Under the pieces are notes generated by a model. It searched no databases and had not been told where the DNA came from. It was given only the letters and a program-made list of their open reading frames with translations. A stretch of DNA of 44,632 bases. It comes from Candidatus Poribacteria bacterium (GTDB lineage: Bacteria; Poribacteria; WGA-4E; PCPOR2b). Shown one piece after another: positions 8,924-43,016 of this stretch. The stretch is from assembly GCA_047517405.1 (NCBI GenBank), contig JAKZSX010000002.1, positions 1 through 44,632 on the forward strand, given 5' to 3'. Numbering within the stretch: the stretch's first letter is position 1; the number at the start of each line of letters is the position of its first letter. The position numbers and the translations under genes were made by a program.

Positions 8924-9934
8924 ATGGACAGTAGTTACCGTGTCGCCATCGTTGGGGCAACAGGAGCGGTTGGCACGACAATGCGGCAGATTTTGGAAGA
9001 ACGCGCATACCCCGTTGCTTCGCTGAAGTTGCTCGCTTCCCATCGTTCTGCCGGTGAGATTTTGACATTCAAAGATCAACCCATCGTGGTCGAAGAGCTA
9101 ACGCACGATTCATTCGATGACGTTGATGTCGTGTTTTCGTCAGCGGGCGCACCTGTCAGTCGTGAATTTATACCGACTGCGGTGGAAAAGGGATGTCTCG
9201 TCATTGATAACACCAGTGCGTTCCGGATGGACGCAGACACACCGCTGGTAATTCCCGAAGTAAACATGCACGCAGCAATGCGGCATCAGGGCTTGATTTC
9301 CAACCCCAATTGTTCGACCATTCAGATGCTTGTGGCGCTCAAGCCACTCTACGATGTCGCAGGGATTAAGCGTATTGTCGTTTCGACCTACCAGAGTGTT
9401 TCAGGAAAAAGCGGCTCTGCTGTTCTTGAACTGGTTGATCAGACGACAGCTGCATTGGAAGGGCGTCCAATTACATGCGATCTGTTTCCGCATCAGATGG
9501 CGTTTAACGTCGCTTTCGATTGGCCCTTTGCTGATAACGGTTACAGCGAAGAAGAGATGAAGATAGTTCATGAAACACAAAAGATCCTTGAAGATGACAC
9601 CATCGGTATCTCGGCGACAACCGTTCGGGTGCCGGTGTTCTTCGCCCATTCTGAATCGATTAACCTTCAAACAGACAGCAAGCTCACCGCTGATGAAGCC
9701 CGCCAGATTCTTTCCCAAGCTCGCGGCGTTACTGTTGTCGATGACCCGAAAAGTCGGAAATATCCGCTTGCTATCAATGCCGCCGGGCAAGATGATGTAT
9801 ACGTCGGACGTATCCGTGAGGACGATTCCATCGAAAACGGATTGAACTTATGGGTCGTCGCAGACAACCTCCGCAAAGGAGCCGCGTTAAACGCTATTCA
9901 GATCGCAGAGGTCTTGGATCGGATTAATGTGTGA
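8924..9934 (+). CDS. asd: aspartate-semialdehyde dehydrogenase
   Basis: VAIVGATGAVG Rossmann motif, the active-site NPNCSTIQ motif, and typical length. I prefer the ATG at 8924 (MDSSYRV). The ORF track starts at a TTG at 8891. Confidence 0.9.
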   Translation: MDSSYRVAIVGATGAVGTTMRQILEERAYPVASLKLLASHRSAGEILTFKDQPIVVEELTHDSFDDVDVVFSSAGAPVSREFIPTAVEKGCLVIDNTSAFRMDADTPLVIPEVNMHAAMRHQGLISNPNCSTIQMLVALKPLYDVAGIKRIVVSTYQSVSGKSGSAVLELVDQTTAALEGRPITCDLFPHQMAFNVAFDWPFADNGYSEEEMKIVHETQKILEDDTIGISATTVRVPVFFAHSESINLQTDSKLTADEARQILSQARGVTVVDDPKSRKYPLAINAAGQDDVYVGRIREDDSIENGLNLWVVADNLRKGAALNAIQIAEVLDRINV

Positions 9935-10016
9935 TAAATACACATATCTGTGCTCCCGCCGGACCAAGCCGACACGTTAGTGCTAACGGTAAGCTTCAAG
10001 GAGCCAAACCGAACAG

Positions 10017-10229: not shown

Positions 10230-12131
10230 ATGCGACTCGAACGTATCATCCTCAAATCTTTCGGCTGTTTTGACCGTAGGGATTTTGATCTGAGCGACGG
10301 GGTGAATCTTATCTTCGGTCCCAATTTCAGCGGCAAAAGCACGCTTGTTAATGCCATTTTTTTTACGCTGACAGGCAAGCCGATTATTCCAAAGGTGAGT
10401 TTGCCTGCAATGGCTCAGTCTGGCGCGCCCAGTGGCACCGCCGGACTCATTTTCCACAACGGAGAGCAGAGCTACCAGCTGTTCCGATCGACGCAGGGAG
10501 AGGTGCAACTCCGTCTTAAAGAGGAAAATGGTGAGAAGTGGCGTATCCTCAGCATGGACAAACGTTCGGCGGACGAAGATCTGAGACAGAAGTTCCATTT
10601 CAGCTATCACCACCTTGCAGCAGCAACATTTCTAAGAGAAGGAGAGATTTTTGAGTTCCTTGCACGACAGCCCGCGGATCGGCGCGATATCCTTTACGCA
10701 TTGCTCGGTATCGATCGGTTGATGGAGGTGCGACAACGTTTCATTGACGGGCGGCGGATTGCCAAGCGAGAGGAGAGGCGGATACAAGACCATCAGCGCA
10801 GTATGCGGGTGACGACGGTCAAGAACCATCGTGAAGAGATTGAGCGGGTTGACGCAGAGCTGAAGAACTTGGAAGGTCAATACGAATTACTGTCGGGTAA
10901 AGGGGCTGAAAGCAGCGATACAGCACTCGTCGCTGAATTGACGCAGGCGCACGAACGATTCCAAAAGGAGATTGACGGGCTAATCCAAGAACGGGCATCG
11001 GTTCTCAGCGGATTCACCGATGTGGATCACCTGCGGGCGTCCATTAAAGAAATTGAGTCAGCGACCGCTAGCACAGGCGGGGTAGAAAAGCAGCGAGAGG
11101 AAGCCATTCAACGGATTGGCAGCCTAAACAGTCAGATCCAAACGCTTTCCGCAGAATGCGAAACCTTGCGCCAATTAATCGACAACGATCACGGGCACTG
11201 TCCAACTTGCCATCAGCCGGTCCAACAAAAGATTATTGCGGGGATCCTTGAAGAGAAAGAGTCAGCGAGGGCTGCAAATCAAGGGGAACTTGAAGCACAG
11301 CAGAAAACCCTCGACGAACAGACTGCTAACATCAATGCCCTGCGTGGACTGAGACAGCGGCATCAGCTGATGCAAAGCAAAGTCGAGCAGCTTGAGCGGA
11401 TCGAGGCGCGACTTGCAAATCTTCAGCGTGAGTTCGATGGGATTGCCAGTCGGTTGGGTACGCTGCAGCCGACACCGCCTCCACAAACGGGCACGGGAGT
11501 TGATGGTGTTACCGATCCCGCACAGATCGCTGAACAACGCCGCCAACTCAAATACCGCATTGACAGCTTGCGCCGACGACTTGTCGGACTTAATAAGGAA
11601 GAAGCGGTTCTCGCCCATAAACTCCAAGAGCTACAGCGGACCCAACACCAAGCGAATCAAATTCTGCGTACACGCCTCAGCTTTGAACTCGCCTGCGACG
11701 GTGTTGATAAGACGATTGCGTCCCTCCAACAGACAATCCTCCAACCCGCCGAAAAGGAAATCCAGCGTTGGCTAGAGCGTATGGACCTGACTCGGTTCTC
11801 TCAGATCGATCTCAAAAGCCAACACCTGCTCCCCTCCCTCAATGTTGAAGGCTTCGAGCGCAACCTATTGCTCCTCAGCGGTAGCGAGAAGATGATGCTC
11901 TACCTCTGCTTCAAAGCCGCGCTATCGGAAGTGTTAGGGGCACTCGGTTTCTTCGTCTTCGACGATCCCACCCTCCACCTCGATCCAGATCGGCGAGGCA
12001 CGATGATTGACTTCATTCAGCGGCTTGCCGAAAAACATCAGGTCATCGTGACGAGCAATGACCCGGAGGTTCGGGCAAGCTTGCCGGACGCACATCTGAT
12101 TGAAACAGTGTCACACACTTCTCAAATGTAA
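10230..12131 (+). CDS. Rad50/SbcC-like SMC-family ABC ATPase with a central zinc hook
   Basis: N-terminal Walker A GPNFSGKST in an MRLERIILKSFGCF... head. A heptad-rich middle region follows. HCPTCHQP (CPxC at 11199-11210) sits at residue 324 of 633. The C-terminus has the signature LSGSEK and Walker B FFVFDDP. Confidence 0.85.
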   Translation: MRLERIILKSFGCFDRRDFDLSDGVNLIFGPNFSGKSTLVNAIFFTLTGKPIIPKVSLPAMAQSGAPSGTAGLIFHNGEQSYQLFRSTQGEVQLRLKEENGEKWRILSMDKRSADEDLRQKFHFSYHHLAAATFLREGEIFEFLARQPADRRDILYALLGIDRLMEVRQRFIDGRRIAKREERRIQDHQRSMRVTTVKNHREEIERVDAELKNLEGQYELLSGKGAESSDTALVAELTQAHERFQKEIDGLIQERASVLSGFTDVDHLRASIKEIESATASTGGVEKQREEAIQRIGSLNSQIQTLSAECETLRQLIDNDHGHCPTCHQPVQQKIIAGILEEKESARAANQGELEAQQKTLDEQTANINALRGLRQRHQLMQSKVEQLERIEARLANLQREFDGIASRLGTLQPTPPPQTGTGVDGVTDPAQIAEQRRQLKYRIDSLRRRLVGLNKEEAVLAHKLQELQRTQHQANQILRTRLSFELACDGVDKTIASLQQTILQPAEKEIQRWLERMDLTRFSQIDLKSQHLLPSLNVEGFERNLLLLSGSEKMMLYLCFKAALSEVLGALGFFVFDDPTLHLDPDRRGTMIDFIQRLAEKHQVIVTSNDPEVRASLPDAHLIETVSHTSQM

Positions 12132-12467
12132 TCGAATTTACCTTTCTCCACTCAATTCACATCTGTACCACGAAAAAATTTTGACTTCATCACGATCGGG
12201 ACGAAAACGACGCTTGAAGCAAAACATCTCATCATTGGTGAAGTGACTCACGTCTCTTTTGTGTTTAATTATGGGGAATTTGGCCCACTCAGTTTTGTAA
12301 CAGTCCGTGTTGATTGGGATATAAAACATAAGATTGAGCGTGCTGAAAATCAGGATACGAGTCCTCAAGGGAGACAAACATCCGAAGAAGAGCGTGAAAC
12401 AGCTCCACAAACAGTGACCTTCGTGCAGACGGGTGGCCCATACTCCGATGGAGGTATGGTGTGAGCA

Positions 12468-12842
12468 GTGGGTGTTCGTGTCCTTAAACAGGGCGAGCGT
12501 GTTTTTCTCAGGTTACGTTCTACTAATGCGCCGTTTGAGCATAATGGGCAGACAGTCAATAGTGGTACTTCAGAATATGGCACTATGTATTCTGTCCAAG
12601 AAGAAGGTGATGAACTTGACCAACATCTCATTAGTCGGGGATGGCAAGGCCTCGATACTACTGTGTTGCAAATGACTCGTATTGTAAGGACGACTCTGAA
12701 ACAACCAGAGCAGATGCGAACATTGGAACGTAGTATGAATGGACTTAAACATCTAACACGAGAGGCTCGCCTCCAAATTGTGATGAACAAGGTGGCGAAT
12801 ATTGAAACGGAGTTGAATCTTCCACATTTTAACAGACAATAA
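12468..12842 (+). CDS. hypothetical protein, possibly the 3' part of a disrupted gene
   Basis: 124-codon ORF (GTG start) with protein-like composition, whereas the antisense ORF is Cys/Arg/Ser-rich junk. It lies in the same frame as ORF 12243-12464, separated from it by one TGA codon. No convincing RBS. Confidence 0.35.
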   Translation: MGVRVLKQGERVFLRLRSTNAPFEHNGQTVNSGTSEYGTMYSVQEEGDELDQHLISRGWQGLDTTVLQMTRIVRTTLKQPEQMRTLERSMNGLKHLTREARLQIVMNKVANIETELNLPHFNRQ

Positions 12843-12859
12843 TATCAAGGAGGATTATC

Positions 12860-12982
12860 ATGAAAACCTTAGCGTTTGTGATGATTGCAATGACCATTGG
12901 CTTCACGAGTGGGAGCTGTGCTCAATCAAAACCTCTTCGATCGTTTGATGTTTTGAGAATGGGAACTTTTTTCTTAGTGTGA
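12860..12982 (+). CDS. 40-aa ORF with a signal-peptide-like N-terminus
   Basis: AAGGAGG lies 6 nt upstream of the ATG. The ORF encodes MKTLAFVMIAMTIGFTSGSCAQSKPLRSFDVLRMGTFFLV. It falls below the ORF-track length cutoff. Confidence 0.3.
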   Translation: MKTLAFVMIAMTIGFTSGSCAQSKPLRSFDVLRMGTFFLV

Positions 12983-13023
12983 ACCCATTGATAGGTCACC
13001 CCGCCTGTCTCAGTCTCTACAGA

Positions 13024-13902
13024 TCACGCTGCCCCCTCCAATCCCAGCTGCCCTGCAAGGTCATCAACAAATTGGCGTGCGACCCGTCCCGATCTGCCGC
13101 TCGATGACGCTTCCCACTCCAACGCTTTCCGATGAAGCTCGTCCGTTGAGAGAGATAATCCACGCTTTTGGGCGTAGTGGGAGACGATCTGTAGGTAGGT
13201 GTTTTGAGAGAACCGATAGAAAGCGAGTCGCAGTCCAAATCGGTCGCTGAGTGAAACCTTCTCTTCGGTCGTCTCTCGCGGGTATAACTCGTCTTCGTCG
13301 TTCTGGGGATACTGGTTTTCCCCAACTTGGCGTGGCATCAGGTGACGACGGTTAGATGTCGCGTAGATGAGGACGTTCTCAGGACGGGCGGCAATCCCGC
13401 CCTCCAGCATCGCTTTCAACTCTCTGTATTCCGCTTCCCCTTCGCTGAAAGAGAGGTCGTCGCAAAAGAGAATATACTGTTCCTGGCGTTCCCACAGGAG
13501 ATCGGCAATCTCTTGCAGATGGAGCAGCCCCTCTTTGTTCACCTCGATCAGCCGCAACCCTTCCGGCGCATACCGATGGAGTATCCCCTTGATGAGCGAC
13601 GATTTACCCGTTCCCCGATCACCCCACAACAGCGCATGGTTCGCTGGGAAGCCGCGCAGAAACTGGCGCGTATTCCGATCTAATTCCTGAATCTGCCGAT
13701 CAACCCCGATCAGGTCGGCGAGGTCCACGAGGTCGGGGTGTTTGACGGGAATTAGACGTTGACTCCGCCACCGAAAGGCGATATGTCCATCGAGTGGTTC
13801 GACGGGATTTTCGATGGCAGCGGTGCTGGCTGTCACGAGCCCTTCCACTTTGTCGAGCAGTTTCTCTACGCGGGGAATAATCGTTTTCCAATCTTGTGCC
13901 AT
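13024..13902 (-). CDS. DUF815 (COG2607) AAA-type ATPase
   Basis: 292 aa with Walker A WGDRGTGKSSL and Walker B ILFCDDLSF. The arrangement is typical of the DUF815 family. G+C is high, like the bulk of the window. Confidence 0.8.
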   Translation of the reverse strand: MAQDWKTIIPRVEKLLDKVEGLVTASTAAIENPVEPLDGHIAFRWRSQRLIPVKHPDLVDLADLIGVDRQIQELDRNTRQFLRGFPANHALLWGDRGTGKSSLIKGILHRYAPEGLRLIEVNKEGLLHLQEIADLLWERQEQYILFCDDLSFSEGEAEYRELKAMLEGGIAARPENVLIYATSNRRHLMPRQVGENQYPQNDEDELYPRETTEEKVSLSDRFGLRLAFYRFSQNTYLQIVSHYAQKRGLSLSTDELHRKALEWEASSSGRSGRVARQFVDDLAGQLGLEGAA

Positions 13903-14045
13903 AGACTTTTTATGTTTTTCCAGTTACTATTTTTGGTTAATTGTTATTGTAGATATGTGCGTTTACTGCTATCCTGTACACTTCCACTAGAATAGTAGCC
14001 ATGATGAGAAAACCTGTAGAAAATCGATTCATAAAGTGGGTCTAT

Positions 14046-16130
14046 TTAATCGGTCGAATTTTCGGACTCATATACGTTTTCGTAATAGTGTAAAATCGTT
14101 TTCAGATCACGCCAGTGCTTCTCATCAAACCAAATGTGTATTGCAAAGTCACTCAATTCCAAGCGTACCTCAGGTTCATCTGAATCTTTCAGAATATCAT
14201 ACAAGACTTTTTGCGCTGCTTTGTCGTTCTTCACATATTCCTGATATTTTGCTGCGCACTCTGGACATAATGCTAGATGTTGAGCCTCGTGTTCTTTGGG
14301 AAAGTAATCTTTTCCGAGAGCCTCTACTGCCTCAAAATAATCATCATCGCTATTGCGCTTCTTGAATGGCATTTCCTGTCTACACATTTGGCATTCCATA
14401 TTGTTAAATTTCGTATATTGCGCCCGAAGGAGAATGTGAGAGTCAATCGTATTACGAGTAGATCTAATACTTCTTGCCCGAATTTCGTATTGTTTTTCTT
14501 CAGCATCGCTGAGTTGTATGGTAAGTCGTTCCGCACGCCGTTTTTCGGTGTTAAGCCTATCAATCATTTCCTCAGGTGATTTACCCTGTGCCCTCAGAAC
14601 CTTAGCAGGTTCGACCATCGTCTCAGCTTCATCACCTGAACTAAATCCTATTTCCTGAGCACGTTGATTCTGATTGCTTTTCTCTCTTTCTTTGAAAATC
14701 TGTTCTAACTTCTGCTTTTCTGCAATCTCACCAAATTTAATTGATTCAAACCATTTTTGTCCTGTCTCGTATGGAAAGCCTTCGGGAAGACGTTCAATTG
14801 ATGCCTCACGAGGGATTACAAAGGAAATTGAGTCGCTATCTTTCTGTGGCACCCACTCTGTTTCTTTTAAATTATGTACAAGACTAGAATGTGCTTCGCG
14901 AGGCTCATTCGATTGGTTCCGACGAAACTGGGCTTTTAAGTAAGATTCAGGCGCACAACTCATCGTTCGCCAAATCAACTTTGCCTTATCAATTGATGGT
15001 TTATAAAACAGATCTTCAAATTCATGGATGCTATAATCTTCATTAATCATTTTCTCGGTAAGCCGACCACCTGGAGCCAACATAAGCCAATAGTATTGAG
15101 GATGATCCTCAGAAATCTCGTGCTTGAATACCTGAAGTTTTGTCTGTACACCTACGGCTTTGGCGAACTTACCAAGCCGTTTTAGATCTATATCGGATTT
15201 TGCATATTTCGGAGAGAGAGGCCTTCTGAAGTGGCTTGAATTTGTCTCCATAGCTTCATAGTATGCTGTCAAACCCGTATCAAGGTAAGGAGAGTCTAGA
15301 AAGATTTTTTCTGGAGATGCCCACCCTTCCTTGTTGTCCAAATCCTTATCAATTTGAAAAATAGGGTAAGATTTGAACAACTCTGCCTGACTTGAATCTA
15401 CCTCTACGAGTTTAATGAATCTTTCCAAATCTGCCTCGCGAGGTTTAATTGATCTAGGCGTATATCGTTGCTTCAAAATCATCTTGATTCGTTCGGTTTC
15501 ATCAACTTCGCGAACCCCAATAGTTTCAAGGGATTTTTTGACCTTTATTGCTTTGTAATCACTTGGTATGTGTTCATCTCCTTGCCGGAACTTTCTCTTT
15601 TTTAAAGTGGTTTTTTGAACCTTCTCGTTTTTTTCTGATTTACGTAAGTCATTGGTCTTTATTTGGCTTGAAACTTTCTTCTTTTCTAAATTGAGTAACC
15701 CATGCTGGTATACTTGCACGTCTGTGTTACCGACCCGCATAAACAGATGGTCATCATCAAACTTTTGCAACTTACCGCGAATTACATAACCTCCACGCAT
15801 AGTGAGAACTATATGTTTCTTGAGAGCTTGTCTTAATTCTCCTTTCTTTAGTTGCATTTTCGTGACACTCTTAGATGGTTGCGCTTTTTCAATGTGCGGT
15901 CTCACATCTAATATTTTCTCAACCGGGAAAGCGAACAGAATATTCCGTATAGGTTTGATGCGGCGCCGGCCTCTGCCGTCATTGCCACGCACCGTACCAG
16001 AATTAATCTCGAAATCTCTCAGGTCGAGAGTATCAGTATCCTCATTTGACAAATAAAAACGCCACGTGTTAGAGTATCGAGTCCGTAATCGATCTGCGTC
16101 CCATTTAGAATTCATTGCGAATCCCCTCAA
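14046..16130 (-). CDS. hypothetical 694-aa protein: Hfq/Sm-like segment, Lys-rich linker, large uncharacterised middle region, C-terminal four-Cys zinc element
   Basis: Uninterrupted ORF. The likely start is the ATG at 16115 (MNSKWD), with GAGGGG upstream. Residues 105-147 read HIVLTMRGGYVIRGKLQKFDDDHLFMRVGNTDVQVYQHGLLNL. Residues 580-625 read CQMC...YFEAVEAL...HLALCPEC. The gene lies 21-36 nt downstream of the helicase gene on the same strand and is markedly AT-rich. Confidence 0.8.
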   Translation of the reverse strand: MRGFAMNSKWDADRLRTRYSNTWRFYLSNEDTDTLDLRDFEINSGTVRGNDGRGRRRIKPIRNILFAFPVEKILDVRPHIEKAQPSKSVTKMQLKKGELRQALKKHIVLTMRGGYVIRGKLQKFDDDHLFMRVGNTDVQVYQHGLLNLEKKKVSSQIKTNDLRKSEKNEKVQKTTLKKRKFRQGDEHIPSDYKAIKVKKSLETIGVREVDETERIKMILKQRYTPRSIKPREADLERFIKLVEVDSSQAELFKSYPIFQIDKDLDNKEGWASPEKIFLDSPYLDTGLTAYYEAMETNSSHFRRPLSPKYAKSDIDLKRLGKFAKAVGVQTKLQVFKHEISEDHPQYYWLMLAPGGRLTEKMINEDYSIHEFEDLFYKPSIDKAKLIWRTMSCAPESYLKAQFRRNQSNEPREAHSSLVHNLKETEWVPQKDSDSISFVIPREASIERLPEGFPYETGQKWFESIKFGEIAEKQKLEQIFKEREKSNQNQRAQEIGFSSGDEAETMVEPAKVLRAQGKSPEEMIDRLNTEKRRAERLTIQLSDAEEKQYEIRARSIRSTRNTIDSHILLRAQYTKFNNMECQMCRQEMPFKKRNSDDDYFEAVEALGKDYFPKEHEAQHLALCPECAAKYQEYVKNDKAAQKVLYDILKDSDEPEVRLELSDFAIHIWFDEKHWRDLKTILHYYENVYESENSTD

Positions 16131-16151
16131 CCATGTCAGTCAACAAATACC

Positions 16152-19100
16152 TCATACTGCTGATACTTCCAGAATCCCATAAGCCACTAGTTTTGTCGTA
16201 ATATCTGCTTTCGCCATTGCTGCGTCCAACTCTTGAATACGCCGATTATAATCTGCTTCAGCGTTGGCAATCTGGTATCCCCTCATCCGCTGGATGTTTG
16301 GATCGTCCACCTGTGCACGTTGGTACTCAAGAAGATTTATCCGTGCTTCATGACTCGTTGATAAGCTTTCTCTACGGTACTCTGCCAATTCACGAGTATT
16401 TTGCCGATGTTTTTCAAGAGTTTCGGCCCACAGTTGATATTGCCGCTTATCCAACTCGTCCCAAGCGAAAGGTTCGCTAGTTCCCTGATTCTCGTGGCCA
16501 ACTGCTCTCTCAAGAAGTCGGTCAAGATGCGGTGTCAACTTCTCATCCAAAGTAATTGACTTGAGTGCCAAATCTTCCTTGATACCGTGAAAATGCCACT
16601 GGTAAATCGCGAATTTGTAACGTCCCGCAGGCACTTCTTGGGTTTGTACCTTCAGTGTTGTGACGACATCTGATTTTATATTCAGCATCTTTGCTGCTTG
16701 TTTGACCAAAGGGTGCACTATATTGATTAAGGTCACTTCATGGTGGTCCCTCCTGCAATCCGCCTCAAAGGTTATAGACAAAAGCGGATCTGTGCCCTTC
16801 AACCATTTTTCCCATTCCCGATAAATCGGGTTCCGTTCTCTAGAGAGTTGTTGGAAATCGCTTAGTAAGATGTTTCGTGCCTCGCCTGAAAGTCGGAGCG
16901 TTTTGAGATGCCTTTCCCCAAGGACAAACTCCTGATCTGTCTGGAGTTGCTGACGCAGATAGAGTGTAACAAGCCGTTGTATCGATGCCGGAGTCAACCA
17001 GAAGCTGGAGGCATCATCAATATCCTGCTGCATCTGATCTTTAGGTAGGCGTAGTCCAAAAAGTTCTAGTTCTCTTTCTTCCAATCGCTCTTGTTCTTGG
17101 ACCGACCGGATCTGATTGTCTTCCAACTGCTGAAATTTTTCACGGCGTTCGGCATCAGTCAAAGTGAAGTTTTCAGCAATACTGTAAATTTCCTGTGTGA
17201 TTTCGCCGAGAATTTTCTCGCTACCACCTAGGGCACTTTCAAAAACACCGATGCGCAGTAAACACCGATCATAGATTTCGGCATCAACGGTGCCCGGTGT
17301 AATTAAGTTGATAATGGTGACACTCCCGCTCTGTTGACCATTCCGGTCGATACGGCCTATCCGCTGCTCAATTCGCATCGGATTCCACGGCAGATCATAA
17401 TTGACCATGCAGTCACAGAATTGGTAATCCAGCCCTTCGCACCCCACCTCGGAAAATAACATCAGATCGAGGCTATCGTACTCTATTCTCGGCTTCTCAA
17501 ACCGACTGCGGAGTTCAAGGCGTTCTTCGTCCGCAACACCGCCGTGAATCATTCCAACGCGAATGCCGTCCGCCTTCAGGTGCGTGTAAAGATAGGCAAG
17601 CGTATGGCGAAAGCTGCTAAACAGCATAATTTTGTTGTTAGGCAAGTGCTGCCGTTCTTGGATAACCCCGCGGAGAGCCTCCAGTTTTTGATCGCGAGAA
17701 TTGATAGATTTCGCTTTTTCGAGAATTACTTGGATCTGGTCCTGAATTTGCGTTATGGTGCCTTCAAGGGGTATTGATCCCGTAACATCCGCTTCCGTCC
17801 ATGCGAGTTCGTCAAGGTGGCGACTCAAGATGTCCTCAAGCATTGGTTCAAGTCCATAGAGGCAACTTGCCAGCTGCCGGCGGAGCGTCGTCATCATGAA
17901 CTTGACATTCTGATCTCCGTGAAGCGTGCGGAATATCTCCGCTTGTGTTTCAAGCAGCGCGTCATGGAGTTCTGCTTGGTCCGCTGTCAATTCAACCTCT
18001 ACGGTTTGCGGTTTGCGAATTGTAAATTCCCCGATATCCCGTCGGCGAGTTCTATTAAGTATTCCTGAAAAGGTATATAGTCCTTCAATATCTGTGATGA
18101 GTTGGACCCGTTCTTCTTTGGTAACGGATTCCTCTGTGATTTGATTTTGGATCCGCTTGAATTCCGGATTCTCTTTGAGTATGGATTTTCCCCAGCCAGT
18201 GGCGGCTGCCCGGTCAAGGGCTTCCCGTGTGTTCTGTGTCCAACCTTGCTCTTGGGAGCGCGCCGCATCAACCGCTTGGTTAATAAATGGATTCGGCTCT
18301 GCCATGTGCTCGAAACTATCTTCATCCAGAATCAGGTCTGGACGAAGAACGTTAAGCAGAACAAACAGGTCTCGGCTGCTAAGCTGAATAGGAGTTGCAG
18401 TCAGGAAGACTGCCGCTTCCGCATGTTCACAGAAAAATCGTACCGCCTCGTGATTGGCAGTATCTTGATTTCGGATGTGGTGTGCTTCATCCACAATCAC
18501 CAGATCAAAGCGTGGGGGTGGATCCAAATCCAAAAGTCCCTGTCCACGCCTTCGCCTCTGCTTACCTTCTGGCCCGTAGAGGAGCACCTTGTCTAACAAC
18601 GAATAGGGGAGGATTACCTTCTGGTATTGCTCGGGCCACTCGCCATCTAGATGCATCTCATTGATGCAGTACTGCAAGAGTTTCCCATCTAGATGCTGGA
18701 AGTCTTCATCAAACCGTTTCAGTTCTCGCTTCCATTTTTCCTCAGCGACCAAGGGGCGGGGGCATATAATGAGGACAGATTTGATATCGTGACGCGCCTG
18801 CAATTCTCGGAGAATCAGCCCTGCCTCAATAGTTTTGCCGACACCAACACCATCAGCAATAAGCAATCTCGGCCGGTCGGATCTGATGAATTTCAGTACA
18901 GGGCGGTACTGATACGGAATAAAATCAATTCCCGCGGTGTTGAGCGAGTAGAGTGTTGATAGTCCTGGACGGAGAATTTGAATCGCGGTTAGGTAGGCGT
19001 GAAACTCATCGCGAGAAAGACGCTGAAAGTCTTCTCCAGATTGCTGTTCCAACTGTAACTGAGATGCATAAAAGTGCTGAACCTTACCATCAATAAAAAC

Positions 19101-19238
19101 ATTGAACCGGTCTTCAGGACTGCCCGGTAATACGTCAACAACTGCACCCCGAACAGATGGATCCGATTTCAAGAAGACAATCTGACCCGGTGAAAACTCT
19201 AGCGGAGAATTCGGGTTGATATGCATAGTTTTTTCCAT
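16152..19238 (-). CDS. SNF2-family DEAD/H-box helicase (1028 aa) with a small N-terminal beta-barrel-like domain and a ~330-aa uncharacterised C-terminal domain
   Basis: Motif I LIADGVGVGKTIEAG, motif II VIVDEAHHIRN, motif III FLTATPIQ, and motif VI QRIGRIDRNGQ are all intact. The alternative start MHINPN lies at 19226. Confidence 0.9.
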   Translation of the reverse strand: MEKTMHINPNSPLEFSPGQIVFLKSDPSVRGAVVDVLPGSPEDRFNVFIDGKVQHFYASQLQLEQQSGEDFQRLSRDEFHAYLTAIQILRPGLSTLYSLNTAGIDFIPYQYRPVLKFIRSDRPRLLIADGVGVGKTIEAGLILRELQARHDIKSVLIICPRPLVAEEKWKRELKRFDEDFQHLDGKLLQYCINEMHLDGEWPEQYQKVILPYSLLDKVLLYGPEGKQRRRRGQGLLDLDPPPRFDLVIVDEAHHIRNQDTANHEAVRFFCEHAEAAVFLTATPIQLSSRDLFVLLNVLRPDLILDEDSFEHMAEPNPFINQAVDAARSQEQGWTQNTREALDRAAATGWGKSILKENPEFKRIQNQITEESVTKEERVQLITDIEGLYTFSGILNRTRRRDIGEFTIRKPQTVEVELTADQAELHDALLETQAEIFRTLHGDQNVKFMMTTLRRQLASCLYGLEPMLEDILSRHLDELAWTEADVTGSIPLEGTITQIQDQIQVILEKAKSINSRDQKLEALRGVIQERQHLPNNKIMLFSSFRHTLAYLYTHLKADGIRVGMIHGGVADEERLELRSRFEKPRIEYDSLDLMLFSEVGCEGLDYQFCDCMVNYDLPWNPMRIEQRIGRIDRNGQQSGSVTIINLITPGTVDAEIYDRCLLRIGVFESALGGSEKILGEITQEIYSIAENFTLTDAERREKFQQLEDNQIRSVQEQERLEERELELFGLRLPKDQMQQDIDDASSFWLTPASIQRLVTLYLRQQLQTDQEFVLGERHLKTLRLSGEARNILLSDFQQLSRERNPIYREWEKWLKGTDPLLSITFEADCRRDHHEVTLINIVHPLVKQAAKMLNIKSDVVTTLKVQTQEVPAGRYKFAIYQWHFHGIKEDLALKSITLDEKLTPHLDRLLERAVGHENQGTSEPFAWDELDKRQYQLWAETLEKHRQNTRELAEYRRESLSTSHEARINLLEYQRAQVDDPNIQRMRGYQIANAEADYNRRIQELDAAMAKADITTKLVAYGILEVSAV

Positions 19239-19308
19239 ACTTCGGTGATGCGCGTCCTTTCACTTTTGAAATCCACTGTCAATTTGGCTATACGCTATTA
19301 TCTCGTTA

Positions 19309-20196
19309 TTACTCGCCCTGTTTCACGCTATCCGCCAAGATCGAGATCATTTCCGCCAGATCTGGGAACGCCTCCGAATCTTCGGGCGCGAGGTCTGCGA
19401 GGTGCGTCTTCCCGACCAATCGGTACATATCCGCCACACCCGCGAGAATCTTTGGCGTCAAACCGACGTAGCCAAACGTTGCTGAAATCTCCTCCATCTC
19501 ACCGATCCAACGTCTAGCCTTCGGCGGCATCCCCGGCAGTCCCCCTTCCATCCGTTGATACAACGCCGATTGACTCATCTGAAATTCCGCTTTGAGGGGT
19601 TCGGACACCCCTAGCAGTTCTGCAGCGGTCAACAGTTCCGTGCAAAGTGCGGTTAATCCCTTTGTCAAAGAGGCGTAGCACATCTTAATCGCCGAAGCCA
19701 ACCCGATCTGATCACCGAGTGGACGGACATCGAGCCCAAATTGCGTCAACGCTTCAAAATCACCGACGTGGGCCCCTGAGGCGTAGAAGCGGGTCGCCCC
19801 CGGCTTTCTCGGCGGCGGACCGATAATCGACGCATCGACAAAACGTCCACCGGCTTCGGTAATGATTTCGTCCAGTTGACGTGTGGTTTGTGGGGCGATT
19901 GCGTTACAATCGACGTAGGTGAGATCCGTTTTCGTTTCGACAAGCGCATCGGCAACCGCTTGAGAGGCCCCCTTGGCTTCTGCCGGCACCATAATCGACA
20001 GGATAATCTCTGCTTCATTCACAAGGTCTTGATACGTCGGTACATCTTCAATCTTCGCTTTTTCTGCGAGGGTCCGGGTGCGTTCACTTCTCCCTTGAAG
20101 ACAGGTAATCACGCGCAGGCCGTGTGTAACAAGGACATTGCCCACAGTATGTCCCATATCGCCGGGGCTTAGAAGTCCAACAGTTTGTAGTGACAT
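19309..20196 (-). CDS. NAD(P)-dependent oxidoreductase, 6-phosphogluconate-dehydrogenase-like NAD-binding fold (DUF1932-type C-terminus)
   Basis: N-terminal VGLLSPGDMGHTVG dinucleotide-binding motif, 295 aa. GAGGAGAAAGAT RBS lies directly upstream of the ATG. Confidence 0.75.
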   Translation of the reverse strand: MSLQTVGLLSPGDMGHTVGNVLVTHGLRVITCLQGRSERTRTLAEKAKIEDVPTYQDLVNEAEIILSIMVPAEAKGASQAVADALVETKTDLTYVDCNAIAPQTTRQLDEIITEAGGRFVDASIIGPPPRKPGATRFYASGAHVGDFEALTQFGLDVRPLGDQIGLASAIKMCYASLTKGLTALCTELLTAAELLGVSEPLKAEFQMSQSALYQRMEGGLPGMPPKARRWIGEMEEISATFGYVGLTPKILAGVADMYRLVGKTHLADLAPEDSEAFPDLAEMISILADSVKQGE

Positions 20197-42816: not shown

Positions 42817-42889
42817 GCCGAGGTAGCTCAGTAGGTAGAGCAGTGGACTGAAAATCCATGTGTCGGCAGTTCAATTCTGCCCCTCGGCA
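42817..42889 (+). tRNA. tRNA-Phe (anticodon GAA)
   Basis: Folded by hand into a cloverleaf: acceptor GCCGAGG/CCTCGGC, D arm GCTC/GAGC, anticodon arm GTGGA-CTGAAAA-TCCAT, T arm GGCAG-TTCAATT-CTGCC, discriminator A. 73 nt, with no encoded CCA. Confidence 0.9.
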
Positions 42890-42939: not shown

Positions 42940-43016
42940 GCCGGTGTAGCTCAGTTGGTCAGAGCGGTTGATTCGTAATCAACAGGTCGGAGGTTCAAAT
43001 CCTCTCACCGGCTCCA
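42940..43016 (+). tRNA. tRNA-Thr (anticodon CGU)
   Basis: Acceptor GCCGGTG/CACCGGC, D arm GCTC/GAGC, anticodon arm GTTGA-TTCGTAA-TCAAC, T arm GGAGG-TTCAAAT-CCTCT, discriminator T, and an encoded CCA. Confidence 0.85.

Follow-up and report, generated by a model that had tools for sequence, protein, structure and literature searches.

The window analyzed here is a stretch of 44,632 nucleotides (nt) from a Candidatus Poribacteria bacterium (GenBank assembly GCA_047517405.1, contig JAKZSX010000002.1, positions 1 to 44,632 of the forward strand). We focus on two adjacent genes on its minus strand, an SNF2 helicase and the gene directly downstream, which we refer to as its partner. Judging by its homologues, the locus holds one resident copy of a two-gene cassette that is widespread but unnamed and that consists of a DrmD-like SNF2 translocase and a partner of normally ~1,050 amino acids (aa) with a sacsin-type ATPase domain. 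The partner open reading frame (ORF) spans positions 14046..16130 (-) and encodes 694 aa when read from a TTG codon, or 689 aa when read from an ATG at position 16115; the ATG is the likely start, with a GAGGGG Shine-Dalgarno-like site a few bases upstream. The genes are co-directional and lie 36 nt (ATG start) or 21 nt (TTG start) apart, as a preliminary description of this DNA had reported, and Pfam agrees with the neighbors named there, a DUF815 ATPase on one side and an oxidoreductase (NAD_binding_2/DUF1932) on the other. Also in line with that description, Pfam and NCBIfam scans of the window and of the syntenic loci found no methyltransferase, intact nuclease or integrase adjoining the pair. 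A promoter and terminator scan of positions 13800-19500 gave no result above chance.

The helicase is intact, as first described: all of the expected motifs are present (Table 1), and Pfam recognizes both SNF2-rel_dom and Helicase_C. The PADLOC DrmD model PDLC02623 matches it with 383 bits, aligning residues 14-910 to positions 2-894 of a profile of 1040, and the top match in NCBIfam is DISARM_DrmD with 320.5 bits, under the equivalog cut-off of 610. On these scores the helicase is DrmD-like, yet not a DISARM DrmD by the NCBI standard. NCBIfam RapA gives 152.8 bits (cut-off 576) and DpdE 152.5 bits; assignment as a RapA equivalog was rejected on this cut-off and because the score is also below that of DrmD, and a grouping with housekeeping RapA/HepA proteins, which the preliminary description had named as counting against its proposal, was not found (320 vs 153 bits). 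Among solved structures only RapA (PDB chains, E = 1.5e-28) and chromatin remodelers match, via the SNF2 core. Helicase orthologues are 47-94% identical across more than 145 loci. Against orthologues at the same site, the ratio of nonsynonymous to synonymous divergence (dN/dS, or omega) is 0.12-0.19 (flanking genes 0.05-0.12), and the synonymous divergence (dS) of 0.15-0.46 is similar to that of the flanking genes (0.23-0.57). The N-terminus of the protein (aa 1-100, positions 18940-19238), FSPGQIVFLKSDPSVRGAVVDVLPG...VFIDGKVQHFYASQLQ, is conserved across phyla, and by eye its sequence resembles a small beta domain of the SH3/Tudor type, such as the one at the N-terminus of RapA.

Used as a query, the 689-aa partner protein had no match in Pfam, NCBIfam, PADLOC or PDB sequences; of the profile searches proposed earlier for both proteins, those with the helicase were informative and those with the partner by itself were empty. 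The identity of the partner was therefore read from the lengths and alignments of its homologues. A homologue search retrieved 177 relatives, nearly all of 1,040-1,110 aa and with Pfam PF25794, and the long relatives align only to window residues 191-689. Full-length partners have Pfam SACS and HATPase_c_3 and NCBIfam P_loop_sacsin at the N-terminus, the family profile matches crystal structures of sacsin SR1 (5V44-47, E = 2e-15), and the PADLOC TmtA (Tiamat) models match full-length partners with 190-214 bits over roughly residues 27-814. DUF3883 was not detected in the window protein or in the partner proteins P0004, P0008, P0016 and P0111. According to these alignments, the canonical partner of ~1,050 aa has a sacsin-type GHKL (Hsp90-like) ATPase at its N-terminus and a Cys4 finger at its C-terminus, with a middle region in between. 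The ~400-aa region in which the preliminary description had recognized no motif is not an independent novelty but the retained rear of this family, which counts 2,742 representatives of 50%-identity clusters at E <= 1e-30.

Helicase and partner are essentially obligate neighbors. A pattern search with one genome per species gave 80 partner loci, 75 of them with enough upstream DNA, and a full-length helicase orthologue (51-90% identical) lies directly upstream on the same strand in 73 of these 75, with a median gap of 36 nt. The ATPase segment is located between helicase and C-terminal part in 73/73 of the paired species-level loci. In a reciprocal scan, seeded with the helicase in metagenome contigs (80 loci, 72 with downstream DNA), a sacsin-ATPase protein is encoded downstream in 72/72. 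The conserved adjacency that the preliminary description had asked about is thus observed from both sides, and the pair is operonic, as stated there. ORF clustering over 80 loci detected no third conserved gene; only the helicase and partner families are conserved, and the remaining clusters are shadow ORFs on the antisense strand or genes confined to particular clades.

Taxonomically, the pair is spread over Poribacteria, Latescibacterota, Entotheonella, Binatia, Caldilineaceae, Desulfobacterota, Chlorobiaceae, Gemmatimonadota, Gammaproteobacteria, a Phormidium and others, with flanking genes that are unrelated between taxa and often metabolic. It is also carried on plasmids of Rhizobium and Ensifer, including a conjugative one, where it is annotated as 'helicase-related protein' and 'hypothetical protein'. 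A search of a phage collection yielded a single partial match, to the ATPase. Two partner-type genes follow one helicase in tandem in loci L008 (4507-11551), L044, L052, L060 and L026. No model for the pair or for the rear half of the partner is present in PADLOC 2.0, Pfam 2025 or NCBIfam 20, and an incomplete literature search found no description of an SNF2 and sacsin-ATPase pair, so that an earlier description is possible.

Some loci deviate from the common layout. A third gene of ~200 aa is located between helicase and partner in L058, L062, L068, L072, L074, L075 and L078, which are Latescibacterota-type, Gammaproteobacteria, Pseudomonadota and Tectimicrobiota loci from metagenome-assembled genomes (MAGs). 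A gene of ~180 aa overlaps the helicase start on the Rhizobium/Ensifer plasmids (L090 4155-4685, L091 4142-4696), and L088 contains an extra gene of 297 aa (9054-9947). Pfam and NCBIfam assigned no family to these clade-specific third genes. In twelve of the helicase-seeded metagenome loci (L100, L103, L113, L141, L147-L149, L154, L161, L163, L167, L169) the ATPase is present and the rear part has no detectable likeness to the C-terminal part of the window protein (tblastn, E <= 1e-5); sub-clades may have exchanged the C-terminal half of the partner among themselves.

From its N-terminus onward, the window partner comprises an Hfq-like module, a linker, a fossil 5' untranslated region with start codon, eight first codons of the ancestral gene and the ancestral rear 499 residues. 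Since whole-protein MAFFT alignments smeared the N-terminal module over the ATPase columns, the two halves were modeled separately. Pfam Hfq matches 10 out of 11 copies of the N-terminal module, the best being that of L013 (E = 1.3e-8, 34.7 bits, gathering cut-off 27), which bears out, at the level of the family, the Sm/Hfq-like segment that had been proposed. In hhalign, residues 102-143 of the module align in the correct register to E. coli Hfq, as a weak match (probability 3.6%). The module forms the N-terminus of the full-length proteins P0014, P0016 and P0019, whereas L013 and L048 encode it as a separate ORF upstream of the helicase; by this comparison it is native to part of the partner family. 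In L008, the first partner ORF ends with an Hfq-like module directly before the MPSDYKAI start of the second gene, a layout that looks like a pre-fusion arrangement.

The linker of locus L082 (10433-10788) contains a 93-nt (31-aa) unit in 3.4-3.9 copies of 68% identity according to Tandem Repeats Finder, which reported no repeat array in the window partner gene. The number of units varies among P0005, P0007, P0009 and P0015, with one copy in the window, and full-length proteins have a basic helix similar to this unit ahead of the ATPase (NDLRELHKKRKKWVEAN). Directly after the linker, the window sequence CAA GGA GAT GAA CAC ATA CCA AGT GAT TAC aligns with caAGGAGatgaacacATG CCG AGT GAT TAC of L001. 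The L001 counterpart is the ancestral AAGGAG Shine-Dalgarno site and ATG; the latter codon is ATA in the window and is read in frame. In agreement with this, full-length proteins P0002, P0004 and P0008 start with MPSDYKAI, and the window protein has ...QGDEH-IPSDYKAI at residues 178-190. Window residue 190 corresponds to residue 8 of P0004, and window residue 196 (LETIGV) to residue 583; the ~565 lost codons encode the sacsin-type ATPase and the domain after it. As reconstructed from these alignments, the 689-aa protein arose when an upstream small ORF was fused to the partner and ~565 codons, those of the ATPase among them, were then lost in frame. The Hfq-like/zinc-finger architecture put forward in the preliminary description is consequently not the defining form of the system, since it belongs to a derived fusion-deletion allele that has lost the ATPase.

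A change at the same codon was seen in L006 (~8270), where ATT takes the place of the partner's ATG start (caaggagatgatcacATTccgagt), a stop codon lies in frame upstream, and the partner is called 28 residues further in (P0023). By alignment, the canonical start was lost here a second time, independently.

AlphaFold2 modeled window residues 187-689 with a mean predicted local distance difference test (pLDDT) score of 88.1. Foldseek with the rear 503 residues against PDB and BFVD returned nothing at E <= 1e-3 and no match to a restriction-endonuclease fold, and among the conserved residues of the middle region a PD-(D/E)xK motif was sought by eye with no convincing result. Winged-helix proteins are among the weak matches of the rear half, and the top ranks are mostly HNH endonucleases, with EcoKMcrA (6GHC, E = 0.048) as the best match, together with Cas9 HNH domains and phage HNH proteins. 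The four-cysteine element noted earlier is well supported by conservation: C578 does not vary among 99 aligned homologues, in which C575, C617 and C620 are each conserved to at least 90%, and all four are invariant in an alignment of 23 sequences. The positions of the HNH triad (catalytic His, Asn and last His) read E598, Q612 and A621 in the window protein. Residues E598 and Q612 are invariant in the 23 sequences and conserved in at least 90% of the 99, and the following A622 is conserved as Ala too. We infer from the sequence and the model that the Cys4 element is a degenerate, probably non-catalytic HNH-derived zinc finger. An active HNH (His-Me finger) endonuclease was rejected, given the weak fold likeness and the replaced triad residues.

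Table 1. Features of the helicase-partner locus, in window positions, and partner alleles of the Poribacteria series (aa, amino acids of the respective protein).
Feature	Positions	Strand	Basis or remark
Gene 1, intact DrmD-like SNF2 helicase, 1028 aa, ATG start	16152..19238	-	Pfam SNF2-rel_dom and Helicase_C
Helicase motif GVGKT, aa 132	18831-18845	-	Read from sequence
Helicase motif DEAH, aa 250	18480-18491	-	Read from sequence
Helicase motif TATP, aa 280	18390-18401	-	Read from sequence
Helicase motif QRIGRIDRNGQ, aa 625	17334-17366	-	Read from sequence
Spacer, helicase stop to partner ATG	16116..16151	-	36 nt, holds GAGGGG Shine-Dalgarno-like site; read from sequence
Gene 2, remodeled partner ORF, 689 aa	14046..16115	-	Homologue alignments; sacsin-type ATPase missing
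N-terminal module, aa 1-145	15681..16115	-	Homologue comparison
Sm/Hfq-like half of N-terminal module, aa 94-143	15687-15836	-	Pfam Hfq in related copies
Lys-rich linker, aa 144-177	15585..15686	-	Single copy of a unit tandemly arrayed in sister alleles
Fossil translation-start region of ancestral partner	15546..15584	-	DNA comparison with L001
Deletion junction, aa 191-195 KVKKS	15531..15545	-	~565 codons absent compared with full-length relatives
Retained middle region, aa 196-495	14631..15530	-	Alpha/beta fold, then long helices (AlphaFold2)
C-terminal domain, aa 496-689	14049..14630	-	Cys4 finger, putative HNH-like fold
Cys4 zinc finger, C575, C578, C617, C620	14256-14393	-	Family alignment
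Partners of L001 and L086			Full length, without Hfq module, 1069 and 1064 aa
Partner of L014			Hfq module and ATPase, split into two ORFs
Partner of the window			689 aa
Partner of L085			418 aa
Partners of L082-84			455 aa
Partners P0009 and P0015			424 and 395 aa

The gene order around the pair in the window is PQQ, adh_short, OGG, a 191-aa gene, GNAT, NAD_binding_2, helicase, partner, DUF815, SMC-like and asd. The same order recurs in Candidatus Poribacteria MAG OZ242335.1 (L001/L002) and in L004, L014 and L082-L086; other Poribacteria hold the pair at different sites. Because the pair is syntenic in these relatives and the helicase has a flank-like dS, it is a long-term resident of this site and not a recent arrival, and the horizontal acquisition suggested in the preliminary description found no support as a recent event. 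From the shared gene order, the source organism is read as a poribacterium-like sponge symbiont. At this site, the helicase is 86-94% identical, the C-terminal part of the partner 48-94% and the ATPase 41-100%. The short alleles (689, 418 and 455/424/395 aa) represent at least three distinct deletion junctions, all in frame, and the Hfq-like module is retained in every short allele, as are the last 193 residues. L085 has the left junction of the window (...PSDYKAI), with a deletion that extends to ...AETMVE. The 689-aa allele was found as seven variants, 99-100% identical, on at least 8 contigs, and is for that reason not considered an assembly artefact.

Purifying selection acts on the C-terminal domain that the alleles share, with a dN/dS of ~0.2 (0.16-0.25 in all comparisons, 0.17-0.25 between truncated alleles). 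For the middle region, dN/dS is 0.28-0.39 between the window and full-length alleles; full-length alleles compared with one another give 0.21-0.30 as the baseline. Copies of the Hfq-like module from the window, L082 and L085 have 93-100% nucleotide identity, with a dS of 0-0.04 (0.15-0.30 in the adjoining helicase). This fits a recent recombinational spread with relaxed or positive selection, on small counts.

The partner gene has the lowest GC content (0.406; 0.375 at third codon positions) of the 32 genes in the window, ~3.4 standard deviations (SD) under the median; the helicase, at 0.480, is ~1.2 SD under it (gene median 0.519, SD 0.034, n = 32; whole window 0.504). The compositional contrast reported before is therefore real for the partner, but had been exaggerated, as the partner had been put at 27-38% and the flanks, which are at 0.55-0.56, at ~60%. 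The neighborhood includes genes of repair type, namely OGG and those for UvrC-like and SMC-like proteins. The SMC-like gene (10230-12131, +) encodes a 633-aa SMC/Rad50-like ATPase that matches PADLOC LmuB with 125 bits and mad3 with 89.5 bits, and NCBIfam ASRP with 142 bits (below its cut-off). It has no LmuA-like effector, is adjoined by a 69-aa ORF that is called in relatives, and keeps its syntenic place in every close relative, so that it is probably resident there and no part of the helicase-partner pair. Between this gene and DUF815 lie 892 nt without a convincing ORF (12132-13023, GC 0.438), for which blastn found no match in the fetched loci or the rest of the window, nor did Rfam; in sister loci L082 and L085 the corresponding distance is ~40-50 nt. 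At the gathering threshold, Rfam annotated only two transfer RNA genes in the whole window, at 42817-42889 (+) and 42940-43013 (+). In L083 (4265-5905), the interval from GNAT to NAD_binding_2, immediately upstream of the pair, holds three additional called genes, which encode a ParA/CbiA-like ATPase, a protein of 33 aa and a HEPN_RiboL-PSP protein, suggesting that the neighborhood is a variable spot. L001, the closest full-length relative, carries insertion sequence-type genes (HTH_23/HTH_29, DDE_3 and DUF4096) between partner and DUF815 (13419-15362).

We infer that the cassette is an anti-mobile-element (defense-type) module. This is based on its homology to DrmD and TmtA, its patchy spread over multiple phyla with unrelated flanks and its carriage on plasmids, as well as on the low GC content, the tandem partner duplications and the strong allelic turnover of the partner beside a conserved helicase. 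The position of a DUF3883-bearing relative of the ATPase next to QatABCD was counted as a further sign of a conflict system. GHKL ATPases, such as MutL, Hsp90, MORC and topoisomerase VI-B, dimerize upon ATP binding, SNF2 proteins are translocases on double-stranded DNA, and Hfq proteins form rings. In the canonical form, the GHKL domain would accordingly serve as an ATP-driven dimerizing sensor or clamp, the rear half of the partner, with its winged-helix-like elements and zinc finger, would bind nucleic acid and/or the helicase, and the SNF2 helicase would be the motor that blocks or clears invading DNA. Profile searches recognized no nuclease or methylase in the cassette.

For the window, we propose that the short allele would still be expressed and kept by selection as an adaptor without ATPase. 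Its Hfq-like module would give constitutive oligomerization and so replace ATP-driven dimerization, its C-terminal domain would still couple to the intact helicase, and the output of the reduced form would probably be altered or weakened. A maintained, ATPase-less adaptor that oligomerizes through the Hfq-like module is the reading of the window allele that we favor over the alternatives, although at even odds.

Several observations weigh against the proposed defense function and against the maintained adaptor. The pair is frequently located outside any recognizable defense island, and a defense function is predicted from sequence and context. As the ATPase is present in 73/73 and 72/72 other loci, its loss would likely cripple the canonical mechanism. 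The window copy of the N-terminal module matches LSM only (E = 0.013, 15.6 bits), under the gathering cut-off of 23.4, so that the Sm/Hfq-like assignment falls below threshold for this copy, and its AlphaFold2 model is unusable (pLDDT 39). The structure prediction and Foldseek search that had been recommended thus gave a good model for the rear half, with matches that are all weak (HNH endonucleases at E >= ~0.05), and none for the module. In addition, the Hfq-like module has a dN of 0.03-0.06 and an omega of at least 1 on few substitutions, a pattern in which purifying selection is not clear. The truncated alleles are young (dS 0.08-0.3), and their open frame and low dN/dS could partly predate the deletions. 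Finally, the split partner of L014 demonstrates that decay occurs at this site.

An alternative is that the window partner is a decaying remnant, in which case the deletion of the ATPase inactivated the cassette, the ORF is open only since the events are recent, and the helicase is being lost or has a separate role. Such decay would explain why an otherwise universal ATPase is missing, why several truncations, a split gene (L014) and a remnant (L048) are all found in the same clade, and why there is little divergence among the truncated alleles. It is also compatible with the omega of the Hfq-like module and with a middle-region omega of 0.39 against L001, slightly over the baseline. It does not readily account for at least three independent junctions that are all in frame, for which the chance would be roughly (1/3)^3 if neutral, nor for the absence of stop codons over 395-689 codons. 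The fusion itself required the loss of a stop codon plus a start-codon change with the frame kept. Moreover, the C-terminal dN/dS between truncated alleles is low (0.17-0.25) at a dS of 0.10-0.24, and the helicase is constrained (0.12-0.19, flanking genes 0.05-0.12). We regard decay as the main alternative, possible but doubtful.

A more far-reaching form of the defense proposal is that the pair is a new, widespread anti-mobile-element system free of nuclease and methylase, in which invading DNA would be silenced or evicted by an SNF2 motor together with a GHKL clamp, by analogy to eukaryotic MORC or SMCHD1 acting with DDM1/HELLS. Alleles in Poribacteria that are sponge symbionts would then have swapped the ATPase for an Hfq-like ring, and would arise recurrently at a rearrangement-prone junction, as suggested by the left breakpoint that alleles have in common and by the tandem repeats of 93 nt. 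We consider this scenario unlikely in its entirety.

The pair could also be a housekeeping module for nucleic-acid remodeling, either a RapA-like transcription recycler or a repair helicase, combined with an Hsp90/MutL-like ATPase. The distant likeness to RapA (E = 1.5e-28 in PDB, 153 bits in NCBIfam), the frequent position amid metabolic genes, the strong conservation of the helicase across phyla (47-70% identity) and the repair-type neighbors in the window (OGG, UvrC-like and SMC-like) would be expected in that case. Yet the DrmD models far outscore RapA, the distribution is patchy with flanks that are not conserved, the GC content is low and the pair is found on plasmids. The partner is duplicated, allelically replaced and truncated between close strains, and a housekeeping gene would not tolerate the loss of its ATPase; a housekeeping role is therefore very improbable. 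The original proposal, a recently acquired AT-rich defense island defined by an SNF2 helicase and an Hfq-like/zinc-finger RNA-binding adaptor, was right about the conserved neighbors, the reality of the Hfq-like module and the Cys4 finger and the lowest GC content in the window, but is hardly credible, as the Hfq-like module was detected in 6/80 genome-scan loci and 0/80 helicase-seeded loci (tblastn, E <= 1e-5), only in some Poribacteria, and is thus optional, the defining partner domain is the GHKL ATPase that the window copy has lost, and synteny and flank-like dS indicate that the pair is not a recent arrival.

The object of interest is therefore the obligate SNF2 and sacsin-ATPase cassette, together with its allelic series in Poribacteria, and not an Hfq/zinc-finger adaptor system. 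To our knowledge, the role of DrmD within DISARM has not been established; if the cassette is a defense system as we propose, it links DrmD and a Tiamat-type sacsin ATPase in a compact two-gene unit that is easier to study. Current annotation does not recognize the pair as a unit, since RefSeq assigns generic names and PADLOC scores the parts separately, as DrmD and TmtA. The Poribacteria alleles form a natural domain-deletion series (full length, Hfq fusion with ATPase, and three short forms without ATPase) that points to the last ~190 residues of the partner as the indispensable part. In addition, the cassette provides a bacterial model of the sacsin-type ATPase domain, which is mutated in the human ataxia ARSACS.

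Compared with known systems, the pair matches no complete named defense system in PADLOC, Pfam or NCBIfam, as had been stated in the preliminary description. The best-scoring family for the helicase is DrmD of class 1 DISARM, which shares with it the SNF2 core as well as a large part of the C-terminal extension, but its 320.5 bits are well under the equivalog cut-off of 610, and its obligate neighbor is a sacsin-type ATPase instead of a DISARM component. DISARM itself was rejected: DrmA, DrmB (DUF1998) and DrmC (phospholipase D, PLD) are absent from the window in Pfam, NCBIfam and PADLOC searches and not conserved in the 80 loci, and no methyltransferase (DrmMI/DrmMII) lies beside the pair in the window, L001 or L082-L089. 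Lamassu was rejected as well, since the SMC-like gene that matches LmuB is on the opposite strand, has no LmuA and is unlinked to the pair in other taxa.

Tiamat has been described as a single-gene defense system that contains a PD-(D/E)xK domain (bioRxiv 10.1101/2024.10.26.620412), and DUF3883 as a restriction endonuclease domain (PMC3710099). Full-length partners have the same sacsin-type ATP-binding domain as TmtA and match it over ~800 residues from the start. They differ in their C-terminus, which is a distinct region of ~250 aa with the degenerate HNH-like Cys4 finger and no detected DUF3883 or nuclease, and in the obligate pairing with an SNF2 helicase (73/75 and 72/72 loci). The DUF3883-bearing relative next to QatABCD, which is on a Sulfuricurvum plasmid, is without the helicase. 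The window protein was rejected as a Tiamat protein, as it has no SACS, HATPase_c_3 or TmtA match and its ATPase region is deleted.

The second half of the N-terminal module resembles Hfq and Sm proteins in its Sm1/Sm2-like pattern (G..I.G.LQ.FD...L.MRV....V.VYRHG), but is preceded by ~90 extra conserved residues and is fused to, or located beside, a helicase-ATPase cassette. MORC or paraMORC proteins occur with SNF2 helicases in restriction-like operons, and MORC or SMCHD1 acts with DDM1/HELLS in eukaryotic silencing. Our pair would share with these a GHKL ATPase and an SNF2 motor directed at foreign or repetitive DNA, as a functional analogy only; here, the ATPase is of the sacsin type and restriction or methylase genes do not accompany it. 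The pair is a new combination of DrmD-like and TmtA-like parts, of which the window carries an unusual, derived allele.

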